Origin: a virus
Reading direction: 5' to 3' (one strand)
UHGV virus genome: UHGV-0222911
Length of the DNA stretch: 64,000 nucleotides
This document shows positions 43,215-52,399 of the stretch, one piece after another. The translations under genes were made by a program, and so were the position numbers. Each line of letters begins with the position of its first letter. The first letter of the stretch is position 1. The notes beneath the pieces are model-generated. The model was not told the DNA's origin. It saw only the letters and a list, made by a program, of their open reading frames with translations, and did no database searches.

Positions 43215-43679
43215 TTACTTTGGGTATACACTGTCAAGATAAATGTCAGCTTCCATTCTACGTCTGTTTTTAAGACCGTTTGAGGTGACCTTCTTACCTT
43301 TGACTGTAACCTTGTTCCACCACTGCATAGCTTCTGCACAACCTACCTTATTACCAGCATTGTGGCGCTTGATAAATGTAGAATCCTGCATAGCTGTGAT
43401 ACCGATGTTGTATGTTTCACTTACAAGTGCATCGAACTCATTCTGAGAAGTTGGAACCTTGATAGCTTTGTTCACTGCTGCAACAAACTTTTCAACATCT
43501 GCGAGAAGATACTGTTCGGCTTGTTCAGCAGTAATTTTCATACCCATCTTAACAGGTTTCCCGTCAATACGGATTGTGCCATACCCAATTGTTGGGATTC
43601 CGGCAGAGTCTTCGTAAGCCTCTAGCTTCAGACCTTCAAAGAACTTAATGGCTTCTAAGCCTTTTCTTGAGAGTTGCAT
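43215..43679 (-). CDS. endolysin, phage lysozyme (GH24 muramidase-like)
   Basis: 154 aa; EGLKLEAYEDSAGIPTIGYG with catalytic Glu-Asp-Thr spacing typical of T4/lambda-type lysozymes (recalled). Confidence 0.65.
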   Translation of the reverse strand: MQLSRKGLEAIKFFEGLKLEAYEDSAGIPTIGYGTIRIDGKPVKMGMKITAEQAEQYLLADVEKFVAAVNKAIKVPTSQNEFDALVSETYNIGITAMQDSTFIKRHNAGNKVGCAEAMQWWNKVTVKGKKVTSNGLKNRRRMEADIYLDSVYPK

Positions 43680-45061
43680 TATGCCTCCCCTGTTGGGTTA
43701 ACTGTAACTGTTGCCGCATTAGATGTTACAGAGCCACCTGCACCAGTTACAACACAAGTGTAGCTTCCTGCATCAGCAGCGGTTGCACCTTCTTTGGTGT
43801 AAGTTGCAGTAGTTGCGTCTGGGATGTTTTCCTCACCCTTCTTCCACTGGTAGCCTGTTGCACCTGTTGCCACAACATTCAGCGTTAAGGTCTCACCTTC
43901 AGTGATTTCTTGATTGGTTGGCTGTTGAGTGATTACAGGAAGAGCATTCACAGTTACTACAGCAGCGTCAGAGACTACATCTCCACCTGCGCCAGTTACC
44001 GTGCATTTGTAAGACCCAGCATCAGCAGGTGTTACACCAGCTTTGGTAAAGGTTGCAGATTTTGCTTCCTCAATACTTACGTTATCTTTGCTCCACTGGT
44101 AGCCTGTTGCTCCAGTTGCAACGATGTTAAGAGTAAGTGTGCCACCCTCATTTACTGTTTTTGCAGTTGGCTGTTGAGTGATTACAGGAAGAGCATTCAC
44201 AGTAACTGTCGCTGCACTAGATGTGACTGAACCACCCGCACCAGTTACTACACAGGTATATGAGCCTGCATCTGTTGGTAGTGCGCCAGACTTGCTATAG
44301 GTAGCTTCTGTAGCTGAAGGGATGTCAGAGCCATCTTTCTTCCATTGGTAACCTGTTGCACCCGTTGCAGTAACCTCCAAGTTGATATTTCCACCCTCAT
44401 TGATGGTCTGACTAGAAGGTTGCTGTGTAATCACGGGTAGCGCATTAACAGTAACTGTTGCCGCATCTGATGTAACACTTGTCCCTGCCTCTCCAGATAC
44501 AACACAAGTGTATGAACCAGCGTCAGAAGGCACTACAGATTGTTTTGTATAAGTTGCAGAAGTGGCACTGGAGATGTCCTCGCCACCCTTCTTCCACTGA
44601 TATCCAGTGGCATTAGTTGCGATAACGCTTAGGGTAAGTGTGCCACCCTCATTAACTGTTTGGTTTGTCGGTTGCTGAGTGATTGCTGGTGGCTTAATAG
44701 CATCCTTCAACTTAGCATTCAACATTGAGAACGGTTTAACTCTTGCCAACCATTCACAATAAACTGTATCAACGTCTTTACCATTGATAATTGCGTATTG
44801 TAAATCCATGAAGAAGTCAGAAGTTCTCATCTGAGCACCGATACTGTAAAGCAAATCATCACTAAAAGGGACTTTGTAGTCTGGTTTGTAGTCAAACTTC
44901 TCAACCTCTGCGATATCAGCTTCAGGCCAATATGAACTATAGGTAAGTGGTAAAATAGCCTCTTGATATGTTCTAAAATCATATCTCTTACCAGCCTTTA
45001 CATTTGCAATGAAGCCCTTTACAAATTCTTTGAAGTCTGGATAAGTCTTTGCTTTAATCAT
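43679..45061 (-). CDS. protein with four tandem Ig-like domains and a unique N-terminal domain
   Basis: 460 aa; four repeats of about 90 aa each (ITQQPTNQTVNEGGTLTL...ATGYQWKK...DAGSYTCVVTGAGGSVTS...ATVTVNALPV); N-terminal domain paralogous to neighbouring 45058..45429 product. Confidence 0.5.
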   Translation of the reverse strand: MIKAKTYPDFKEFVKGFIANVKAGKRYDFRTYQEAILPLTYSSYWPEADIAEVEKFDYKPDYKVPFSDDLLYSIGAQMRTSDFFMDLQYAIINGKDVDTVYCEWLARVKPFSMLNAKLKDAIKPPAITQQPTNQTVNEGGTLTLSVIATNATGYQWKKGGEDISSATSATYTKQSVVPSDAGSYTCVVSGEAGTSVTSDAATVTVNALPVITQQPSSQTINEGGNINLEVTATGATGYQWKKDGSDIPSATEATYSKSGALPTDAGSYTCVVTGAGGSVTSSAATVTVNALPVITQQPTAKTVNEGGTLTLNIVATGATGYQWSKDNVSIEEAKSATFTKAGVTPADAGSYKCTVTGAGGDVVSDAAVVTVNALPVITQQPTNQEITEGETLTLNVVATGATGYQWKKGEENIPDATTATYTKEGATAADAGSYTCVVTGAGGSVTSNAATVTVNPTGEA

Positions 45062-47058: not shown

Positions 47059-47138
47059 TTTTAAAAGGTGTTGACAGACTCTACAAAGTTGTTCTAAAGT
47101 CTGTCACATCAAACAACAATGAGAGAAGAGAGTAAAAT

Positions 47139-48554
47139 ATGAGCGAATTATTTAAACATGCGCACCTTCATGCAGGTCGAACTGAAAATGGTGCTGTAAA
47201 CCATACTTCATCAATGTCTGCTCTTGTAGACTTTTACAAAGCTGCTGGTTCTAGCCGTAGCAATGTAGAAATCTTACCAGACCTGTTCTACAAAGCTTTG
47301 CGTGAGGATGTTGATGTTGCAGTTCGTATTTTACTGCATATGCGAGATGTACGAGAAGGTATGGGTGAGCGTAAAGCTTTCCGAACTGTTTTAATTCAAG
47401 CAGTTGAAGATAAAGTTTTAGAACCTACACAGGTTCTTCGCATTATGGATAAGATTGCAGAGCTTGGTCGCTTTGATGACTTCAAAATCTTTGTAGGTAC
47501 TCGTTTCGAGACAGATGCCTTCAAACACTTAGAAGCAGCATTACTAGACCCTGCAACAGCAGGTTTGGCGGCTAAGTGGTTACCACGAGTCAAACCACGT
47601 CATAAGCAGTTTGTAAAACGTTTCTGCAAGTTTGCCAACTTGAGCGAGAAAGAGTACCGCACACTGTTGTCTGCACTATCTGATACAGTTGAGCAAAAAA
47701 TCTCTGCTAATGAGTTTGGTAAGATTGACTACAGTAAGATTCCTTCACTTGCTGCTGCACGCTACCAAAAACTGTTTAACCGTAAAGATGGAGAGCGATA
47801 CAAAGCTTACATCGAGTCCTTATCAAAGGGTGAGGCTAAGATTAATGCTGGTGCTGTTTACCCATACGATGTGATTAAATCTGTCAAGCATGGTAATGCA
47901 GATGTTGCTAATGAGCAGTGGAAAGCACTACCAAACTGGATGGCAGAAGGTGAAAACATCTTATGTATGTCTGATGTATCAAGTTCAATGTCTTGGGTGA
48001 ATTTTGGCTCCATTACTGCTCTGGATATTGGTGTATCACTTGCCTTGTATGTAGCAGAACGCAATACAGGCTGCTTTAAGAATGAGTTGATGGTTTATTC
48101 AACAAACCCTCACTTCATCGAACTGAGTGGTGATTTACGAAACCGTCATCGTCAGGTGATGCGACACGTTGAATATGGCTCAACTAACTTACAAGCAGCT
48201 TTTGACCGTATTCTTGAGGTAGGTAAGAGAAACAACTTGACTCAGAAAGATATGCCAAGTAAGCTTATCATCTTCTCTGATATGGAGTTCAATCAGGTTG
48301 ATGGTGCAAATGGTCGTACAAACTTTGAAGTAATTCGTAGTAAGTACAAAAAAGCTGGATACGAAATGCCACAACTAGTATTCTGGTACTTAGCAAACCG
48401 TAATGGTACTTGCGAAGTGTCTGTTAAGGATAACGGTGTAGCAATGGTATCAGGGTTCTCTCCAGCCACTTTAAAAGCTCTGCTCGGTGGTGAGAATTTT
48501 GACCCAATCAGCGTAATGCTCAAAGCAGTAATGATTGACCGTTACATCTGGTAA
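47139..48554 (+). CDS. vWA-domain protein with helical N-terminal domain (possible Ro60/TROVE-like architecture)
   Basis: 471 aa; MIDAS-type DVSSSM (DxSxS) with downstream GSTN and FSDMEF elements in the C-terminal half; N-terminal about 280 aa helical. Confidence 0.45.
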   Translation: MSELFKHAHLHAGRTENGAVNHTSSMSALVDFYKAAGSSRSNVEILPDLFYKALREDVDVAVRILLHMRDVREGMGERKAFRTVLIQAVEDKVLEPTQVLRIMDKIAELGRFDDFKIFVGTRFETDAFKHLEAALLDPATAGLAAKWLPRVKPRHKQFVKRFCKFANLSEKEYRTLLSALSDTVEQKISANEFGKIDYSKIPSLAAARYQKLFNRKDGERYKAYIESLSKGEAKINAGAVYPYDVIKSVKHGNADVANEQWKALPNWMAEGENILCMSDVSSSMSWVNFGSITALDIGVSLALYVAERNTGCFKNELMVYSTNPHFIELSGDLRNRHRQVMRHVEYGSTNLQAAFDRILEVGKRNNLTQKDMPSKLIIFSDMEFNQVDGANGRTNFEVIRSKYKKAGYEMPQLVFWYLANRNGTCEVSVKDNGVAMVSGFSPATLKALLGGENFDPISVMLKAVMIDRYIW

Positions 48555-48572
48555 AAAGTTTTAAAAGGGGTA

Positions 48573-48602
48573 TTGACAATGTGTTTAATACCCTTTAATA
48601 TG
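48573..48602 (+). promoter_or_regulatory. sigma70-like promoter upstream of tRNA cluster
   Basis: TTGACA-17-TTTAAT; second TTGACA at 48664. Confidence 0.35.
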
Positions 48603-48719
48603 TTCTACATAGAAACGAAATGAGAGCTTTTCTAAGATACTGAAAAATATTTTAAAAAAGTTCTTGACAACCACTAAAAAATAATGTTAAAGTGGTTACA
48701 TAGAGTTTGAAAAGTTTAT

Positions 48720-48796
48720 CTCTGTTTAGCTCAGCTTGGTAGAGCGTTCCGTTTGGGGCGGTAAGGCCGGAGGTTCAAGTCCTCCAACAGAGACCA
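48720..48796 (+). tRNA. tRNA-Pro (anticodon UGG)
   Basis: Cloverleaf parsed by eye: perfect 7-bp acceptor CTCTGTT/AACAGAG, D arm GCTC/GAGC, anticodon loop TTTGGGG, T loop TTCAAGT, CCA encoded. Confidence 0.7.
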
Positions 48797-48803
48797 AATT
48801 AAT

Positions 48804-48881
48804 GTTCCAGTAGACAAAATGGTAAAGTCACCACTCTTTCAAAGTGGATATTTGAGGGTTCAAATCCCTTCTGGAACGCCA
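48804..48881 (+). tRNA. tRNA-Glu (anticodon UUC)
   Basis: Acceptor GTTCCAG/CTGGAAC, anticodon stem CCACT/AGTGG loop CTTTCAA, T arm GAGGG-TTCAAAT-CCCTT, CCA. Confidence 0.65.
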
Positions 48882-48887
48882 GTTTTG

Positions 48888-48962
48888 ACAGAAGACCAAT
48901 TACAGCAAACTTAATCTTATTCATCTGAAGGTAAATCGGACAAAGAAGAGATTTGGTCTGGT
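48888..48962 (+). ncRNA. structured element family A, copy a (conserved stem ACAGAAGACCAAT...ATTTGGTCTGG)
   Basis: 5' ACAGAAGACCNNTTACAGCAA and 3' GGTCTGG conserved in 4 copies; ends are reverse-complementary. Confidence 0.4.
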
Positions 48963-48972
48963 CATTAAGAAT

Positions 48973-49049
48973 TGCGGGTATAGAGAAAGGGCGTCTCACA
49001 TGTCTCATTAGCATGGTATCGGCAGGTTCGACTCCTGCACCCGCCTCCA
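48973..49049 (+). tRNA. tRNA with anticodon CAU (Met or Ile2); irregular 5' half
   Basis: T arm GCAGG-TTCGACT-CCTGC, 3' acceptor ACCCGCC-T-CCA, anticodon stem CATGT/GCATG loop CTCATTA; 5' acceptor pairing imperfect by eye. Confidence 0.5.
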
Positions 49050-49056
49050 AATTTAC

Positions 49057-49120
49057 AGAAGACCGTTTACAGCAATATTTATTAAATTTTTAGCGGAAAA
49101 ATTGAAAGATACGGTCTGGT
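49057..49120 (+). ncRNA. structured element family A, copy b
   Basis: ACAGAAGACCGTTTACAGCAA ... ATACGGTCTGG with internal hairpin AATTTTT-AGCGG-AAAAATT. Confidence 0.4.
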
Positions 49121-49132
49121 AATACTAAACAT

Positions 49133-49209
49133 GGTTAGGAAGCACATAAGGTATGTGCGGTCGCCTGTTAAGCGAATGGCACAGGGTTCGAATCCCTGAC
49201 TAACCGCCA
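49133..49209 (+). tRNA. tRNA-Asn (anticodon GUU)
   Basis: Acceptor GGTTAGG/ACTAACC, D arm GCAC/GTGC, anticodon loop CTGTTAA, T arm CAGGG-TTCGAAT-CCCTG, CCA. Confidence 0.65.
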
Positions 49210-49278
49210 AATTTAGGAGAGAAGCGATTGCTCACCGATTTGTAAGGTGCAAGTCCTTAGCCTGAATAGAAATTAAAT

Positions 49279-49366
49279 GTGTCGTTATCCCGTAGATGGT
49301 AGCGGTGGGGACTGTAAATCCCTTGTCATTGAGACTCGGTAGGTTCGACTCCTACACGGCACACCA
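49279..49366 (+). tRNA. tRNA-Tyr (anticodon GUA), long variable arm
   Basis: Acceptor GTGTCGT/ACGGCAC, anticodon stem GGGGA/TCCCT loop CTGTAAA, 14-nt variable arm, T arm GTAGG-TTCGACT-CCTAC, CCA. Confidence 0.65.
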
Positions 49367-49371
49367 AGTAA

Positions 49372-49450
49372 AGGTTATGTAGTTTAATCTGGTTAAAATA
49401 CTCCCCTGTCACGGGAGATGATGAGGGTTCGAATCCCTTCGTAACCGCCA
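49372..49450 (+). tRNA. tRNA-Asp (anticodon GUC)
   Basis: Acceptor GGTTATG/CGTAACC, anticodon stem CTCCC/GGGAG loop CTGTCAC, T arm GAGGG-TTCGAAT-CCCTT, CCA. Confidence 0.7.
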
Positions 49451-49529
49451 AATTATAATAAGTATTTCAAAATGATGTTTTGAGAGGGCTATTTAGCCCC
49501 TCCCTTAAAGAGTTCTTACGAGTATTCTT

Positions 49530-49612
49530 TAAAGGAGCAGAAGACCAAATTCAGCAAGTTACTTAAAATTTCAAGCCAATTTAATTTTGAAAAATTTAAA
49601 ACTTGGTCTGGC
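49530..49612 (+). ncRNA. structured element family A, copy c
   Basis: GCAGAAGACCAAATTCAGCAA ... AACTTGGTCTGG. Confidence 0.4.
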
Positions 49613-49623
49613 TCAACAAATTT

Positions 49624-49756
49624 ACAGAAGACCGTTTACAGCAAACTTTAAACAATCTATTTCTCCGGTAAAGAAAAGGCGAAGGTTCGATTCCTTCACT
49701 CGGCAGATGTCGAGTTGGTGTAATGGTAGCACTTAAGATGATAAACAACGGTCTGG
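49624..49756 (+). ncRNA. structured element family A, copy d, enclosing a tRNA-like module (T arm then acceptor/D-arm-like segment)
   Basis: Outer stem CAGAAGACCGTT/AACGGTCTGG; inside GAAGG-TTCGATT-CCTTC + ACTCGGC followed by GTCGAGT-TG-GTGTAATGGTAGCAC (acceptor strands complementary but in 3'-then-5' order). Confidence 0.4.
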
Positions 49757-49900
49757 TAATTATCTTTGCAGATAAGTTATTAAGCTTACCTGTGAGTATG
49801 CGACCACAAAGGGTGAAAGGGTAAATTCTAGATTTAAACCCAACAAGGCACATCGCTACAGACCTTAAGCAAGTCTGGGTAGCTTATCTACAAAGATAAT
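49757..49900 (+). ncRNA. candidate structured RNA bounded by inverted repeats TATCTTTGCAGATAAG / CTTATCTACAAAGATA
   Basis: Terminal 16-nt arms reverse-complementary (1 mismatch); internal hairpins CAGACC-TTAAGCAA-GTCTG and palindrome TAAATTCTAGATTTA. Confidence 0.3.
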
Positions 49901-49905
49901 TTAAT

Positions 49906-49981
49906 GGAAGTGTAGCAGAATGGTGATGCGGCAGACTTTTAATCTGACAGGCGATGGGTTCGAATCCCTCCACTTCTACCA
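49906..49981 (+). tRNA. tRNA-Lys (anticodon UUU)
   Basis: Acceptor GGAAGTG/CACTTCT, anticodon loop CTTTTAA, T loop TTCGAAT, CCA; paralog of tRNA at 51982. Confidence 0.55.
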
Positions 49982-50060
49982 AATTCACCCTTAACTGAGA
50001 AACACCTGCGCGGCTGGAAACACCCACTCAACAGTTTCTCTAACTAGGGTACTTATTCTG

Positions 50061-50136
50061 GTTCAGTCGCAGATAAGGTAATGCAAGGGTCTCATAAGCC
50101 CTATGAATGTGGGTTCGATTCCCATCTGAACCTCCA
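50061..50136 (+). tRNA. tRNA with anticodon CAU (Met or Ile2)
   Basis: Perfect acceptor GGTTCAG/CTGAACC, anticodon stem AGGGT/GCCCT loop CTCATAA, T arm GTGGG-TTCGATT-CCCAT, CCA. Confidence 0.65.
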
Positions 50137-50137
50137 A

Positions 50138-50213
50138 GCTGGTATAGTTAAGAAGGTTATAACACTCCCCTGATAAGGGAACATCGGTGGTTCGATTCCA
50201 CCTACCAGTACCA
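50138..50213 (+). tRNA. tRNA-Ile (anticodon GAU)
   Basis: Acceptor GCTGGTA/TACCAGT, D arm GTTA/TAAC, anticodon loop CTGATAA, T arm GGTGG-TTCGATT-CCACC, CCA. Confidence 0.65.
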
Positions 50214-50228
50214 ATTTCAATAAAGTTG

Positions 50229-50258
50229 TTGACATTGAGATGTGACCACTTTATAGTA
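50229..50258 (+). promoter_or_regulatory. sigma70-like promoter inside tRNA cluster
   Basis: TTGACA-17-TATAGT. Confidence 0.4.
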
Positions 50259-50461
50259 ACCTTAGTTTTCGTTGCGTAGCGTCTATTTTGCAAATTTAAA
50301 ATAAATGCAAACGACAATGTTTTTCTGGCAGTAGCTTGATAGGCTAAACACCAGTGAGGTCTTCCAATCCCTCATCAAAGAATTTGGCGTACTCGCCCAC
50401 GGTATGATTAATAAGGTGGGCATCTTTAAGGGCTTTCTAAGAGAGTCTTTAAAGATAATTA

Positions 50462-50543
50462 CGGGGCGTATCTCAGCGGTCTTCTAAACCGCCGTTAACC
50501 GAGTAAGTGGAGTATGCGGGTTCGAGTCCTGCCGCCTCGACCA
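50462..50543 (+). tRNA. atypical tRNA-like gene (anticodon-like loop CTTCTAA = UCU, Arg?) immediately upstream of HNH gene
   Basis: Perfect 7-bp acceptor CGGGGCG/CGCCTCG, T arm GCGGG-TTCGAGT-CCTGC, CCA, hairpin GCGGT-CTTCTAA-ACCGC; no canonical D arm found by eye, 23-nt extra region. Confidence 0.35.
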
Positions 50544-50557
50544 ATTTTGGAGAAATC

Positions 50558-50905
50558 ATGAAAACTTGTATTAGGTGCAAACTTAGCAAGGATGAAAATG
50601 ATTTCTACATGAAAGATGGTAGGAGAACTCATTCATACTGTAAAAAGTGTGTTAATGAGCAAACCATAGAAAGACAAAGAGCACTTAAACTCTTAGCTAT
50701 TGAGTACAAAGGTGGGGTTTGTCATGATTGTGGTAAGAAGTATCATCCAGCAGTGTATGACTTCCATCATTTGAATCCTTCAGATAAAGATTTTAACATT
50801 GGTCATAGGAAAAGCCTTAAGTTCTCTCAAGAACTAAAAGATGAACTTGACAAATGTGTTTTGCTATGTTCAAATTGCCATAGGGTAAGACATGCAAAAT
50901 ATTAG
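50558..50905 (+). CDS. HNH endonuclease with N-terminal zinc-finger (inserted in tRNA cluster)
   Basis: Track ORF 50507.. overlaps tRNA; trimmed to MKTCIRCKL; HHLNPSDKDF...CVLLCSNCHRVRH HNH/Zn motif; paralog of 51134..51538. Confidence 0.55.
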   Translation: MKTCIRCKLSKDENDFYMKDGRRTHSYCKKCVNEQTIERQRALKLLAIEYKGGVCHDCGKKYHPAVYDFHHLNPSDKDFNIGHRKSLKFSQELKDELDKCVLLCSNCHRVRHAKY

Positions 50906-51133: not shown

Positions 51134-51538
51134 ATGAAACTTTGTAGAAAATGTTCTCAAGAAAAGCCTTTAAGCTGCTTTCATAAAAGAGGTAATGGCT
51201 ATCAGTCTGCTTGCAAAGATTGTAAAGCTAAGTACTCAGCAAAGAGATACAAAGAAGACCCTACTTATAAAGCAAAAAGAAAAGTTAGGGCAAAATATGA
51301 CAAAAAGAGGAACAGAGAGTTCCTTAGTAGATATAAGAAGTTTTGCAAATGCAGAATATGTGGCGAATCTGAGCCAGTAGCTTTGGATTTTCATCACTTA
51401 GACCCTAAAGAGAAAGATTTTGCTCCAAGCAATCTTAAAACTTACTCTAGGGGCACTATTAAGCGTGAAGTCCGTAAGTGTGTTGTGCTTTGTTCAAACT
51501 GTCATAGGAAAGTTCATGCAGGACTGTTAAGTATTTAA
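51134..51538 (+). CDS. HNH endonuclease with N-terminal zinc-finger (inserted in tRNA cluster)
   Basis: 134 aa; CRKCSQEK...CKDCKAK and HHLDPKEKDF...CVVLCSNCHRKVH. Confidence 0.55.
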   Translation: MKLCRKCSQEKPLSCFHKRGNGYQSACKDCKAKYSAKRYKEDPTYKAKRKVRAKYDKKRNREFLSRYKKFCKCRICGESEPVALDFHHLDPKEKDFAPSNLKTYSRGTIKREVRKCVVLCSNCHRKVHAGLLSI

Positions 51539-52227: not shown

Positions 52228-52304
52228 GCTGCTTTCGTATAATTGGCTATTACACATCCCTTGTAAGGATGGAAATGCAGGTTCGAGTCCTGTGAGCAGC
52301 ACCA
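52228..52304 (+). tRNA. tRNA-Thr (anticodon UGU)
   Basis: Acceptor GCTGCTT/GAGCAGC, anticodon stem CATCC/GGATG loop CTTGTAA, T arm GCAGG-TTCGAGT-CCTGT, CCA. Confidence 0.7.
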
Positions 52305-52305
52305 A

Positions 52306-52395
52306 TTCAGAGGTCAAGTGAAAGACCGCTGGTGTCAACTGAAGACCGTAACAAATTCCACGGAGTTGAGTTAGCGGCACAACTTCAGACCTCTT
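52306..52395 (+). ncRNA. structured element related to family A (contains TGAAGACCGTAACAAATTCC), flanked by CAGAGGTC / GACCTCT inverted repeat
   Basis: Lies between tRNA-Thr and tRNA-Val; no tRNA fold; shares GAAGACCGT core with family A. Confidence 0.3.
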
Positions 52396-52399
52396 TCAC

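Follow-up and report, generated by a model that had tools for sequence, protein, structure and literature searches.

The 64,000-nucleotide (nt) stretch of virus genome UHGV-0222911 that we analysed (the window) contains an open reading frame (ORF) of 471 amino acids (aa) at 47139..48554 on the plus strand, followed by four structured RNA elements, here RNAs a to d, that lie among tRNA genes. We conclude that this locus is probably a phage version of the Ro60/Y-RNA ribonucleoprotein (RNP), made up of a Ro60-fold protein and RNAs a to d. The region is ~96% identical to the genomes of Salmonella phage Felix O1 and other Felixounaviruses, and the ORF is the counterpart of Felix O1 ORF42, whose RefSeq name is 'RNA-binding protein'. 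On its 3' side lies a phage tRNA array in which HNH endonuclease genes are interspersed.

A protein with a predicted Ro60 fold

The gene was described as follows.

47139..48554, + strand: Ro60-like protein gene, 471 aa; helical repeat domain at about residues 1-265, then a C-terminal vWA domain with a complete MIDAS (metal ion-dependent adhesion site)

An original prediction, made from the sequence without database searches, had described this ORF as a vWA-domain protein with a helical N-terminal domain, and our analysis bore this out. The motif DVSSSM occupies residues 279–284, in the C-terminal half of the protein. The MIDAS (DxSxS...T...D) is complete, and its residues D279, S281, S283, T349 and D381 were invariant in 64 homologues down to ~42% identity. 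An AlphaFold2 (AF2) model of the protein (predicted local distance difference test score, 90.3; predicted template modelling score, 0.89) contained only helices to approximately residue 263 and thereafter an alpha/beta vWA fold. When the AF2 model was used as a Foldseek query, the best 12 matches were all Ro60/TROVE proteins, matched over the full length, and the identity in these structural alignments was 11–16%. The protein showed the arrangement that characterizes Ro60/TROVE, a helical (HEAT-like) repeat ring closed by a C-terminal vWA domain. Judged by its modelled structure, it is a highly divergent Ro60-fold protein. The suggestion of a Ro60 relationship in the original prediction thus held for the fold, in both the structure prediction and the Foldseek search, and did not extend to TROVE membership by sequence.

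At E ≤ 1, the sole Pfam assignments were DUF2828 and DUF7788, and PHROGs placed the protein in family 850, 'RNA-binding protein'. The family is large, with 5,805 clusters at 50% identity (E ≤ 1e-3). Homologues were found in ~710 of 50,697 deposited phage genomes, with hosts in Escherichia, Mycobacterium, Salmonella, Vibrio, Listeria, Staphylococcus, Campylobacter, Enterococcus, Bacillus and Aeromonas.

That the protein is Ro60-like is already known through a 97%-identical relative, gp130 of phage Bas63 (MZ501086; bas63_0130), which occupies the same syntenic position. This protein was reported to have a Ro60-like structure, to be encoded directly 5' of tRNA genes and to counter the Ppl defence (PhageMaP preprint, 10.1101/2024.10.10.617714). 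The anti-Ppl function of gp130 was transferable to phage T7 (10.1101/2024.10.10.617714).

Four RNA elements among the tRNA genes

The pattern CAGAAGACCNNTTNCAGCAA matched the 64-kb window four times, at 48889, 49056, 49538 (one mismatch) and 49625, always on the plus strand. Shuffled sequences gave a mean of 0.03 matches, and none of 100 shuffles reached four. Four copies had been predicted downstream of the gene, and all four were recovered, two of the predicted positions (49057 and 49530) being off by a few bases. Each copy has a complementary 3' arm, NNGGTCTGG, and the four share a common fold: an outer 4-bp helix, an AGA/G internal loop, a stem of 7–8 bp and the single-stranded UUACAGCAA. 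In every copy the terminal stem, AGACCNN/NNGGUCU, is followed by G and then by single-stranded (U)UACAGCAA. The copies lie 330–1200 nt downstream of the gene on the gene's strand; two promoter-like sites precede them, and 3–11 nt separate them from the adjacent tRNAs.

We scored the elements with two covariance models, R1, built from 26 short forms, and R2, built from 11 non-Felix long forms that include mycobacteriophage and Enterococcus phage sequences. The four elements and their parts are listed below.

48886..48964, + strand: Y-like RNA a, short form, between tRNA-Glu and tRNA-Met (R1 47.7 bits, E 1.8e-9); outer helix UGAC/GUCA, AGA/G loop, stem AGACCAA/UUGGUCU, ACAGCAA at 48902-48908
49053..49122, + strand: Y-like RNA b, short form, between tRNA-Met and tRNA-Asn (R1 51.8 bits, E 1.7e-10); outer helix UUAC/GUAA, stem AGACCGU/ACGGUCU, ACAGCAA at 49069-49075
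49535..49614, + strand: Y-like RNA c, short form (R1 42.7 bits, E 3.3e-8); outer helix GAGC/GCUC, stem AGACCAA/UUGGUCU, UCAGCAA at 49551-49557
49621..49759, + strand: Y-like RNA d, long YrlA-like form (R2 67.3 bits, E 1.9e-12, full model length); outer helix UUAC/GUAA, stem AGACCGUU (49629-49636)/AACGGUCU (49747-49754), ACAGCAA at 49638-49644
49660-49676: V hairpin of RNA d
49681-49697: T arm of RNA d, GAAGG-UUCGAUU-CCUUC
49698-49715: closed acceptor-like 7-bp hairpin of RNA d, ACUCGGC-AGAU-GUCGAGU
49718-49732: D arm of RNA d, GUGU-AAUGGUA-GCAC

All four elements keep their places across 15 related Felixounavirus genomes. The outer helix of RNA b covaries, UUAC/GUAA being replaced by UUGC/GCAA in L005, L006, L008, L011 and L015, and the interior of RNA a is swapped for an unrelated hairpin in some relatives while its ends are unchanged. 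Neither ARAGORN nor the Rfam tRNA threshold called any of RNAs a to d a tRNA.

The long form and its tRNA-like body

Over the whole window, RNA d ranked first in the R2 scan, and the next matches (31.6 bits or less) were tRNA-tRNA junctions. Because R2 was built without Felixounavirus sequences, its recovery of RNA d indicates that RNA d is an independent member of the long-form class. Between 49660 and 49732, RNA d presents the V hairpin, the T arm, the acceptor-like stem-loop (AS) and the D arm in that order, and the order V-T-AS-D is what defines bacterial YrlA (Chen et al. 2014, PMC4201824). The perfect T arm and the acceptor- and D-arm-like segments that had been predicted in this copy were confirmed (49681-49732). 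In relatives, the acceptor-like hairpin ACUCGGC/GUCGAGU changes to ACACG/CGUGU or ACCCUUC/GAAGGGU with the T and D arms fixed; in L011–L014 it is wholly exchanged yet still paired. RNA d is not a cloverleaf, since a 4-nt loop closes its acceptor-like stem and it has no anticodon arm. The Rfam tRNA model matched it only on the T-arm side and scored 24.7 bits there, below the threshold of 29.

Many other phages have at least one element with a T arm, a covarying acceptor-like hairpin of 6–9 bp plus two nucleotides, and a D arm, the hairpin sequence differing from phage to phage. The Rfam YrlA model scored these long-form relatives at 34–45 bits, which is significant yet under the gathering threshold of 69. 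A 7-bp acceptor-like stem is the length that made Mycobacterium smegmatis YrlA an RNase P substrate, and by analogy an RNase P-type cleavage of RNA d within its AGAU loop is a reasonable possibility.

Aeromonas Aeh1-like and related large phages carry the RNA body in tRNA topology (L038:5895-6137, L040:7751-8136, L042:7900-8320). These forms have an open acceptor stem ending in ACCA, and Rfam calls them tRNAs of 113–121 nt. In place of an anticodon arm they have a hairpin (3' strand-CUG-short loop-AGA-5' strand) that is followed by UUC(A/C)GCA. This tRNA-topology form is a natural circular permutation of the window's Y-type form.

The RNA accompanies the gene in distant phages

We assembled a distant sample of 65 loci from viral contigs encoding homologues of 39–46% identity. 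Many of these loci carry elements that conform to 5'-(A)AG(G/A)NNNN-(N)UU/A-CAGCAA...NNNN(C/U)CU-G and lie just up- or downstream of the gene, with stem sequences that are entirely different. Their hallmark is a nearly invariant ACAGCAA that exits the terminal stem's 5' strand, together with a G that follows the 3' strand. A descriptor of this arrangement (an AG-stem of at least 7 bp, 1–5 nt, CNGCA[AC], the complementary strand and CTG) matched the gene strand 109 times and the opposite strand twice over 81 loci. Over the 65 non-Felix loci, the corresponding counts were 48 and 2, and dinucleotide shuffles gave 0–4. Model R1 gave 60 matches in the non-Felix loci at E ≤ 1, all 60 on the gene strand. 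At E ≤ 0.01, it gave 47 matches across 34 of the 65 loci, non-seed loci included; 43 of the 47 were within 600 nt of the gene and none was inside it.

In a model-based alignment of 55 distinct sequences, the terminal stem was 97% paired and showed 127 double-sided changes. Slid alignments were only 31–55% paired, and none of 500 shuffles paired as highly. The R1 seed was chosen for pairing, so the 100% pairing within it is circular; the variety of its pair types is free of this circularity. Two or three sequences that MAFFT misplaced (L023, L034 and L038) were left out of the seed alignments.

Loci hold 2–7 copies of the element. Listeria phage LMTA-94 has three elements 5' of the gene, Staphylococcus phage 6ec has three 3' of it, and Enterococcus phage phiSHEF13 has three 5' of it, two of them tRNA-like. 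The cluster L mycobacteriophages have three elements of the form GUGGNNNN-UAACAGCAA...NNNNCCAG, the middle one tRNA-like, followed by a terminator. The element also adjoins DUF2828 genes in Sinorhizobium phage phiM7 (one small element), Campylobacter phage CPX (two) and Bacillus phage Chewbecca. Taken together, the hosts of the distant phages with this pairing comprise Proteobacteria, Campylobacter, Listeria, Staphylococcus, Enterococcus, Bacillus and Mycobacterium. In phiSHEF13 (L088:800-1340), a conserved hairpin of ~50 nt (AAAAGGUUUUG...CAUAGUUCCAACCU...GGUAGCCGGAACAUAA) precedes each of the three elements, which makes the repeating unit larger than that of other phages.

No protein-coding neighbour, whether RNA ligase, RtcB, polynucleotide kinase or another, was conserved with the Ro-like gene, the best occurring in 14 of 66 loci; the RNA is therefore the gene's only constant companion. 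The top neighbour 'clusters' were discarded as antisense ORFs inside the Ro-like gene itself. A reverse scan of viral contigs with AAGGNNNNTTACAGCAAAC returned many matches that were due to chance or lay inside ORFs, and the flanking DNA was short. One convincing short element (L095:1526-1590) had no DUF2828 gene in its short surrounding DNA. A 318-aa vWA/MIDAS protein (DVTGSM) is encoded 2.6 kb downstream of it (L095:4134-5090) and may be a different vWA partner.

Weighing the interpretations

Several results weigh against reading the locus as a Ro60/Y-RNA particle. Pfam TROVE was not matched by the 471-aa protein at E ≤ 1, and searches of PDB sequences with phmmer and with a profile of the 64-sequence family returned no Ro60 chain and nothing relevant. 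The Rfam Y_RNA and YrlA models had no match in the window region even at E ≤ 10, the stretch scanned for YrlA being 48555-50520. The known Ro-binding motifs (GNCGAAN0-1G or CGAA in bacteria, GGUCCGA in animals) are absent from RNAs a to d; in place of a CGAA-type motif they have the AG(A/G)-stem plus (U)UACAGCAA. Folded as single sequences, RNAs a to d did not differ significantly from shuffled controls (z −1.2 to −1.9), contrary to the expectation that they would fold better. Because these folding energies are unremarkable, the support for RNAs a to d comes from comparative data and not from thermodynamics. By strict criteria, the element was found in only about half of the distant loci, and the reverse scan yielded several convincing elements whose short flanking stretches contained no detectable DUF2828 gene, so the gene-RNA pairing may not be exclusive. 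Lastly, gp130 by itself rescued T7 on the ppl host, whether a plasmid or T7 expressed it (10.1101/2024.10.10.617714), indicating that the anti-Ppl activity needs no phage RNAs. The phage RNAs may modulate that activity or serve some other one. The earlier proposal of a Y-RNA-like family was supported by the linkage to the gene across distant phages, the covariation of the stem and the V-T-AS-D order of RNA d, with the qualification that RNAs a to d fall short of the Rfam Y RNA and YrlA thresholds and lack the canonical motif.

Alternatively, the elements could be cis-acting parts of a messenger or precursor RNA, either autoregulatory or message-stabilising sites in an untranslated region (UTR) or signals for the processing or stability of the tRNA precursor. 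A 5' or 3' UTR would fit their position in most distant phages, 10–600 nt up- or downstream and always on the gene's strand, and in L022 and L023 they lie 10–13 nt from the start codon. We consider this unlikely. In the window, the elements sit between tRNAs, and promoter-like sites and two tRNAs intervene between them and the gene; the multiple copies per locus and the complete tRNA-like body of many elements, which a UTR operator would not need, argue in the same direction. Moreover, bacterial Y RNAs are also co-transcribed with rsr, hence both readings are compatible, and the protein would bind the motif even if the elements were UTR sites. The location inside a tRNA array, the tRNA-type T and D arms of RNA d and the weak R2 matches at tRNA-tRNA junctions raise another alternative, in which the elements are tRNA-derived spacers, degenerate remnants or anticodon-nuclease decoys that are independent of the Ro60-like protein and only incidentally adjacent to it. 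The reverse-scan elements that lack a DUF2828 gene in their short flanking DNA would agree with this. Yet most distant loci that bear an element have no tRNA within 4 kb while the gene is present, and the conserved part is a non-tRNA module (AG-stem, ACAGCAA and G) that also occurs in short forms without tRNA-like sequence. The acceptor-like hairpin, moreover, is self-complementary and covarying, which is not expected of two unrelated tRNA remnants, and we regard a tRNA-derived origin as improbable. Repeats acting at the DNA level, such as miniature mobile elements, homing-endonuclease-associated repeats or operator sites, would account for the inverted-repeat ends (CAGAAGACC...GGTCTGG) and for HNH endonuclease genes in the tRNA region. 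This explanation is strongly disfavoured and very unlikely to be correct, given the strict strand bias relative to the gene (109 versus 2 for the descriptor, 60 versus 0 for R1). Furthermore, the stems are wholly different between phages with pairing kept, including G-U pairs that are mismatches on the other strand; the single-stranded motif is conserved on one side only, and the interiors are tRNA-like.

A proposed Ro60/Y-RNA particle

A phage Ro60/Y-RNA particle is thus the interpretation that we favour. The analysis shows the predicted fold, a covarying family of RNAs and the linkage of this family to the gene; beyond these we infer direct binding, processing and a cellular target. The RNA recurs beside the gene in many phages that are not related, which suggests that a viral Ro/Y-RNA particle is widespread. 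Three promoter-like sites bear on its expression.

47071..47100, + strand: promoter-like site TTGACA-18-TAAAGT from a consensus scan, 39 nt 5' of the Ro60-like gene
48573-48601 and 48664-48693, + strand: two promoter-like sites between the gene and the first tRNA, with 10/12 matches each

The number of promoter-like sites in the region was not above chance, so the site at 47071..47100 is plausible at most. The two sites within 48573..48693 are likely to be the start of the transcript of the tRNA/Y-like RNA array, a function that we infer. RNAs a to d would be transcribed with the tRNA array from these promoters just 3' of the gene. Because the RNAs lie within 3–11 nt of tRNAs and 3' of the promoter-like sites, tRNA processing would release them: RNase P and the 3' tRNA-processing enzymes would do so by cutting the flanking tRNAs. 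The putative recognition module consists of the paired ends, which form a stem starting 5'-AG(A/G) with an unpaired G after its 3' strand, and of the single-stranded ACAGCAA off the 5' strand. Ro60 binds the Y RNA stem on its outer surface and the 3' ends of misfolded RNAs in its central cavity. By analogy with this outer-surface binding and with the Ro60-Yrl complex of phage phiLo, the module would be the binding site of the Ro60-like protein. The variable interior may be an effector or regulatory module, short, A/U-rich and YrlB-like in RNAs a to c. In RNA d, as in bacterial YrlA, it is a tRNA-like body, with the elbow nucleotides G18G19 and those of the T loop, and this tRNA-shaped body would give access to tRNA-recognising enzymes. 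The interior could gate the protein's RNA-binding surface, tether the protein to host tRNA-binding or RNA-decay enzymes, or both. RNA metabolism in the infected cell is the most likely field of action of the RNP. Since the Bas63 protein neutralises Ppl, the protein also contributes to counter-defence.

A broader reading, which we put forward tentatively and consider possible but doubtful, is that DUF2828 proteins and ACAGCAA-type RNAs form a second, previously unrecognised Ro/Y lineage that is very common in virulent phages. Its tRNA-shaped arm would engage host tRNA-recognising enzymes or immune nucleases that target tRNA or other RNA, so that the system would be a general RNA-based counter-defence module, and its RNA body would exist in two circularly permuted topologies, the Y-type with a closed acceptor and the tRNA-type with an open acceptor ending in ACCA. 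If this were true, the motif could be a guide to unknown cellular partner RNAs, since eukaryotes, plants among them, also have DUF2828.

Other features of the region

One further stretch of the window could encode a fifth partner RNA.

49758..49901, + strand: possible fifth partner RNA, 144 nt, between RNA d and tRNA-Lys; minimum free energy (MFE) −43.2 kcal/mol, z −5.07

Its inner hairpin (49860-49877; AGAC-CUUAAGCAA-GUCU-G) resembles a minimal AG-stem/ACAGCAA motif, and both the closing stem and the inner hairpin covary in L011–L014, where the hairpin reads AAACC-CUUUAGCAA-GGUUU-G. It had no R1 match and no Rfam match, and its membership in the RNA family is uncertain. The original prediction had named another candidate, at 52306-52395. 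We rejected this candidate as a family member: R1 did not match it, and the R2 match there (52242-52351) was tRNA-Thr running into the spacer. The spacer between tRNA-Thr and tRNA-Val (52305-52399) has a stable predicted fold (MFE −30.7, z −2.96) and includes GAAGACCGUAACAAA, which recalls the 5' arm of the elements; it may be a decayed element copy or an unrelated structure. The spacer between tRNA-Asn and tRNA-Tyr (49210-49278; z −2.64 versus shuffles) has a T-arm-like GGUGCAAGUCC. It occurs in some Felixounaviruses and is cleanly missing in L002, L003, L007 and L010, and may be a tRNA remnant or an indel.

An Rfam-detected tRNA at 50462-50540 (31.7 bits), missed by ARAGORN, overlaps the start of an HNH ORF at 50507-50905, and a second, paralogous HNH endonuclease ORF lies at 51134-51538. 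Besides tRNAs, the Rfam matches at E ≤ 10 (Dicty_Class_I, sX4 and tmRNA_permuted) were set aside as due to chance; the weak tmRNA_permuted match at 50155-50339 scored 29.6 bits, below its threshold of 47. A 460-aa ORF on the minus strand (43679-45061) contains four tandem immunoglobulin-like repeats of ~90 aa each (...QQPTNQTVNEGGTLTL...GSYTCVVTGAGGSVTS...), and the Bas63 annotation of this ORF is an immunoglobulin-like domain protein.

Significance and comparison with known systems

Ro60/Y-RNA particles are conserved from bacteria to humans, and human Ro60 is a major autoantigen in lupus and Sjogren's syndrome; their recognition rules and functions are still poorly understood. Our results give the DUF2828 'Ro-like' family a concrete candidate RNA partner, defined by a terminal stem, ACAGCAA and a 3' G, in a gene-RNA pairing that is conserved over phages of at least four bacterial phyla. 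They also link RNAs to a protein with a published anti-Ppl phenotype, which opens a role in the phage-host arms race to direct experiment. Seed alignments are supplied for the new RNA family, which is absent from Rfam 15.

The closest published case is gp130 of Bas63 (Escherichia phage JohannRWettstein), the same protein as that of the window. Y RNAs have been speculated to exist in its tRNA region, with some annotated tRNA genes as candidates (10.1101/2024.10.10.617714). The candidates described here are unannotated spacers between tRNAs, which corrects the location of the Y-like RNAs of Felix O1/Bas63-type phages. That preprint does not describe the RNA family, its motif or its spread across phages. 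More generally, we found no cognate RNA family in Rfam 15 or in the searchable literature, and no account there of the ACAGCAA motif, the short and tRNA-like forms, the cross-phylum conservation or the Felixounavirus location.

Phage Ro60/Y-RNA modules are known from mycobacteriophages with a recognisable Ro60 (PMC4201824) as well as from Thermus phage phiLo (PMC12135203). The YrlA example shown by Chen et al. 2014 (PMC4201824) comes from Mycobacteriophage ET08. The phiLo Ro60 (Hu et al. 2025, PMC12135203; PDB 9kop, 9l5y) binds two adjacent Yrl RNAs and host PNPase. It is an annotated TROVE protein, whereas the window protein is not, and the two are ~15% identical in sequence. The phiLo RNAs Yrl1 and Yrl2 carry CGAA and have no tRNA-like body, in contrast to the ACAGCAA motif of the window RNAs. 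The 'Ro-like RNA binding protein' of cluster L mycobacteriophages (SEA-PHAGES; LeBron gp53, LilDestine gp55) likewise combines DUF2828 and DUF7788, at 32–34% identity, and is followed, before a terminator, by three ACAGCAA-type elements (short, tRNA-like, short), of which we found no description in the literature searched. Those genomes are high-GC, and their elements differ in a terminal stem GGNNNNN/NNNNNCC with a U-A instead of an A-U closing pair.

The likeness to metazoan Y RNAs lies in the paired ends, a stem with a conserved asymmetric interruption and a variable interior; the Felix-group counterpart of the interruption is the outer 4-bp helix, the AGA/G internal loop and the main stem. 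The elements have no sequence similarity to metazoan Y RNAs, no GGUCCGA and no Rfam Y_RNA match. Bacterial Ro60 (Rsr) with YrlA/YrlB (Salmonella and M. smegmatis; PMC4201824; RF02553) differs in its recognisable TROVE sequence, in its presumed binding motif (GNCGAAN0-1G versus AG-stem, ACAGCAA and 3' G) and in its RtcB/RtcA operon context, which is lacking here, where three to four or more copies occur, in the window inside a phage tRNA array. In its overall design, however, the bacterial system is alike: a ring-fold protein with a vWA/MIDAS domain, and at least two small RNAs adjoining its gene, one of them long with V-T-AS-D between paired ends and the others shorter.

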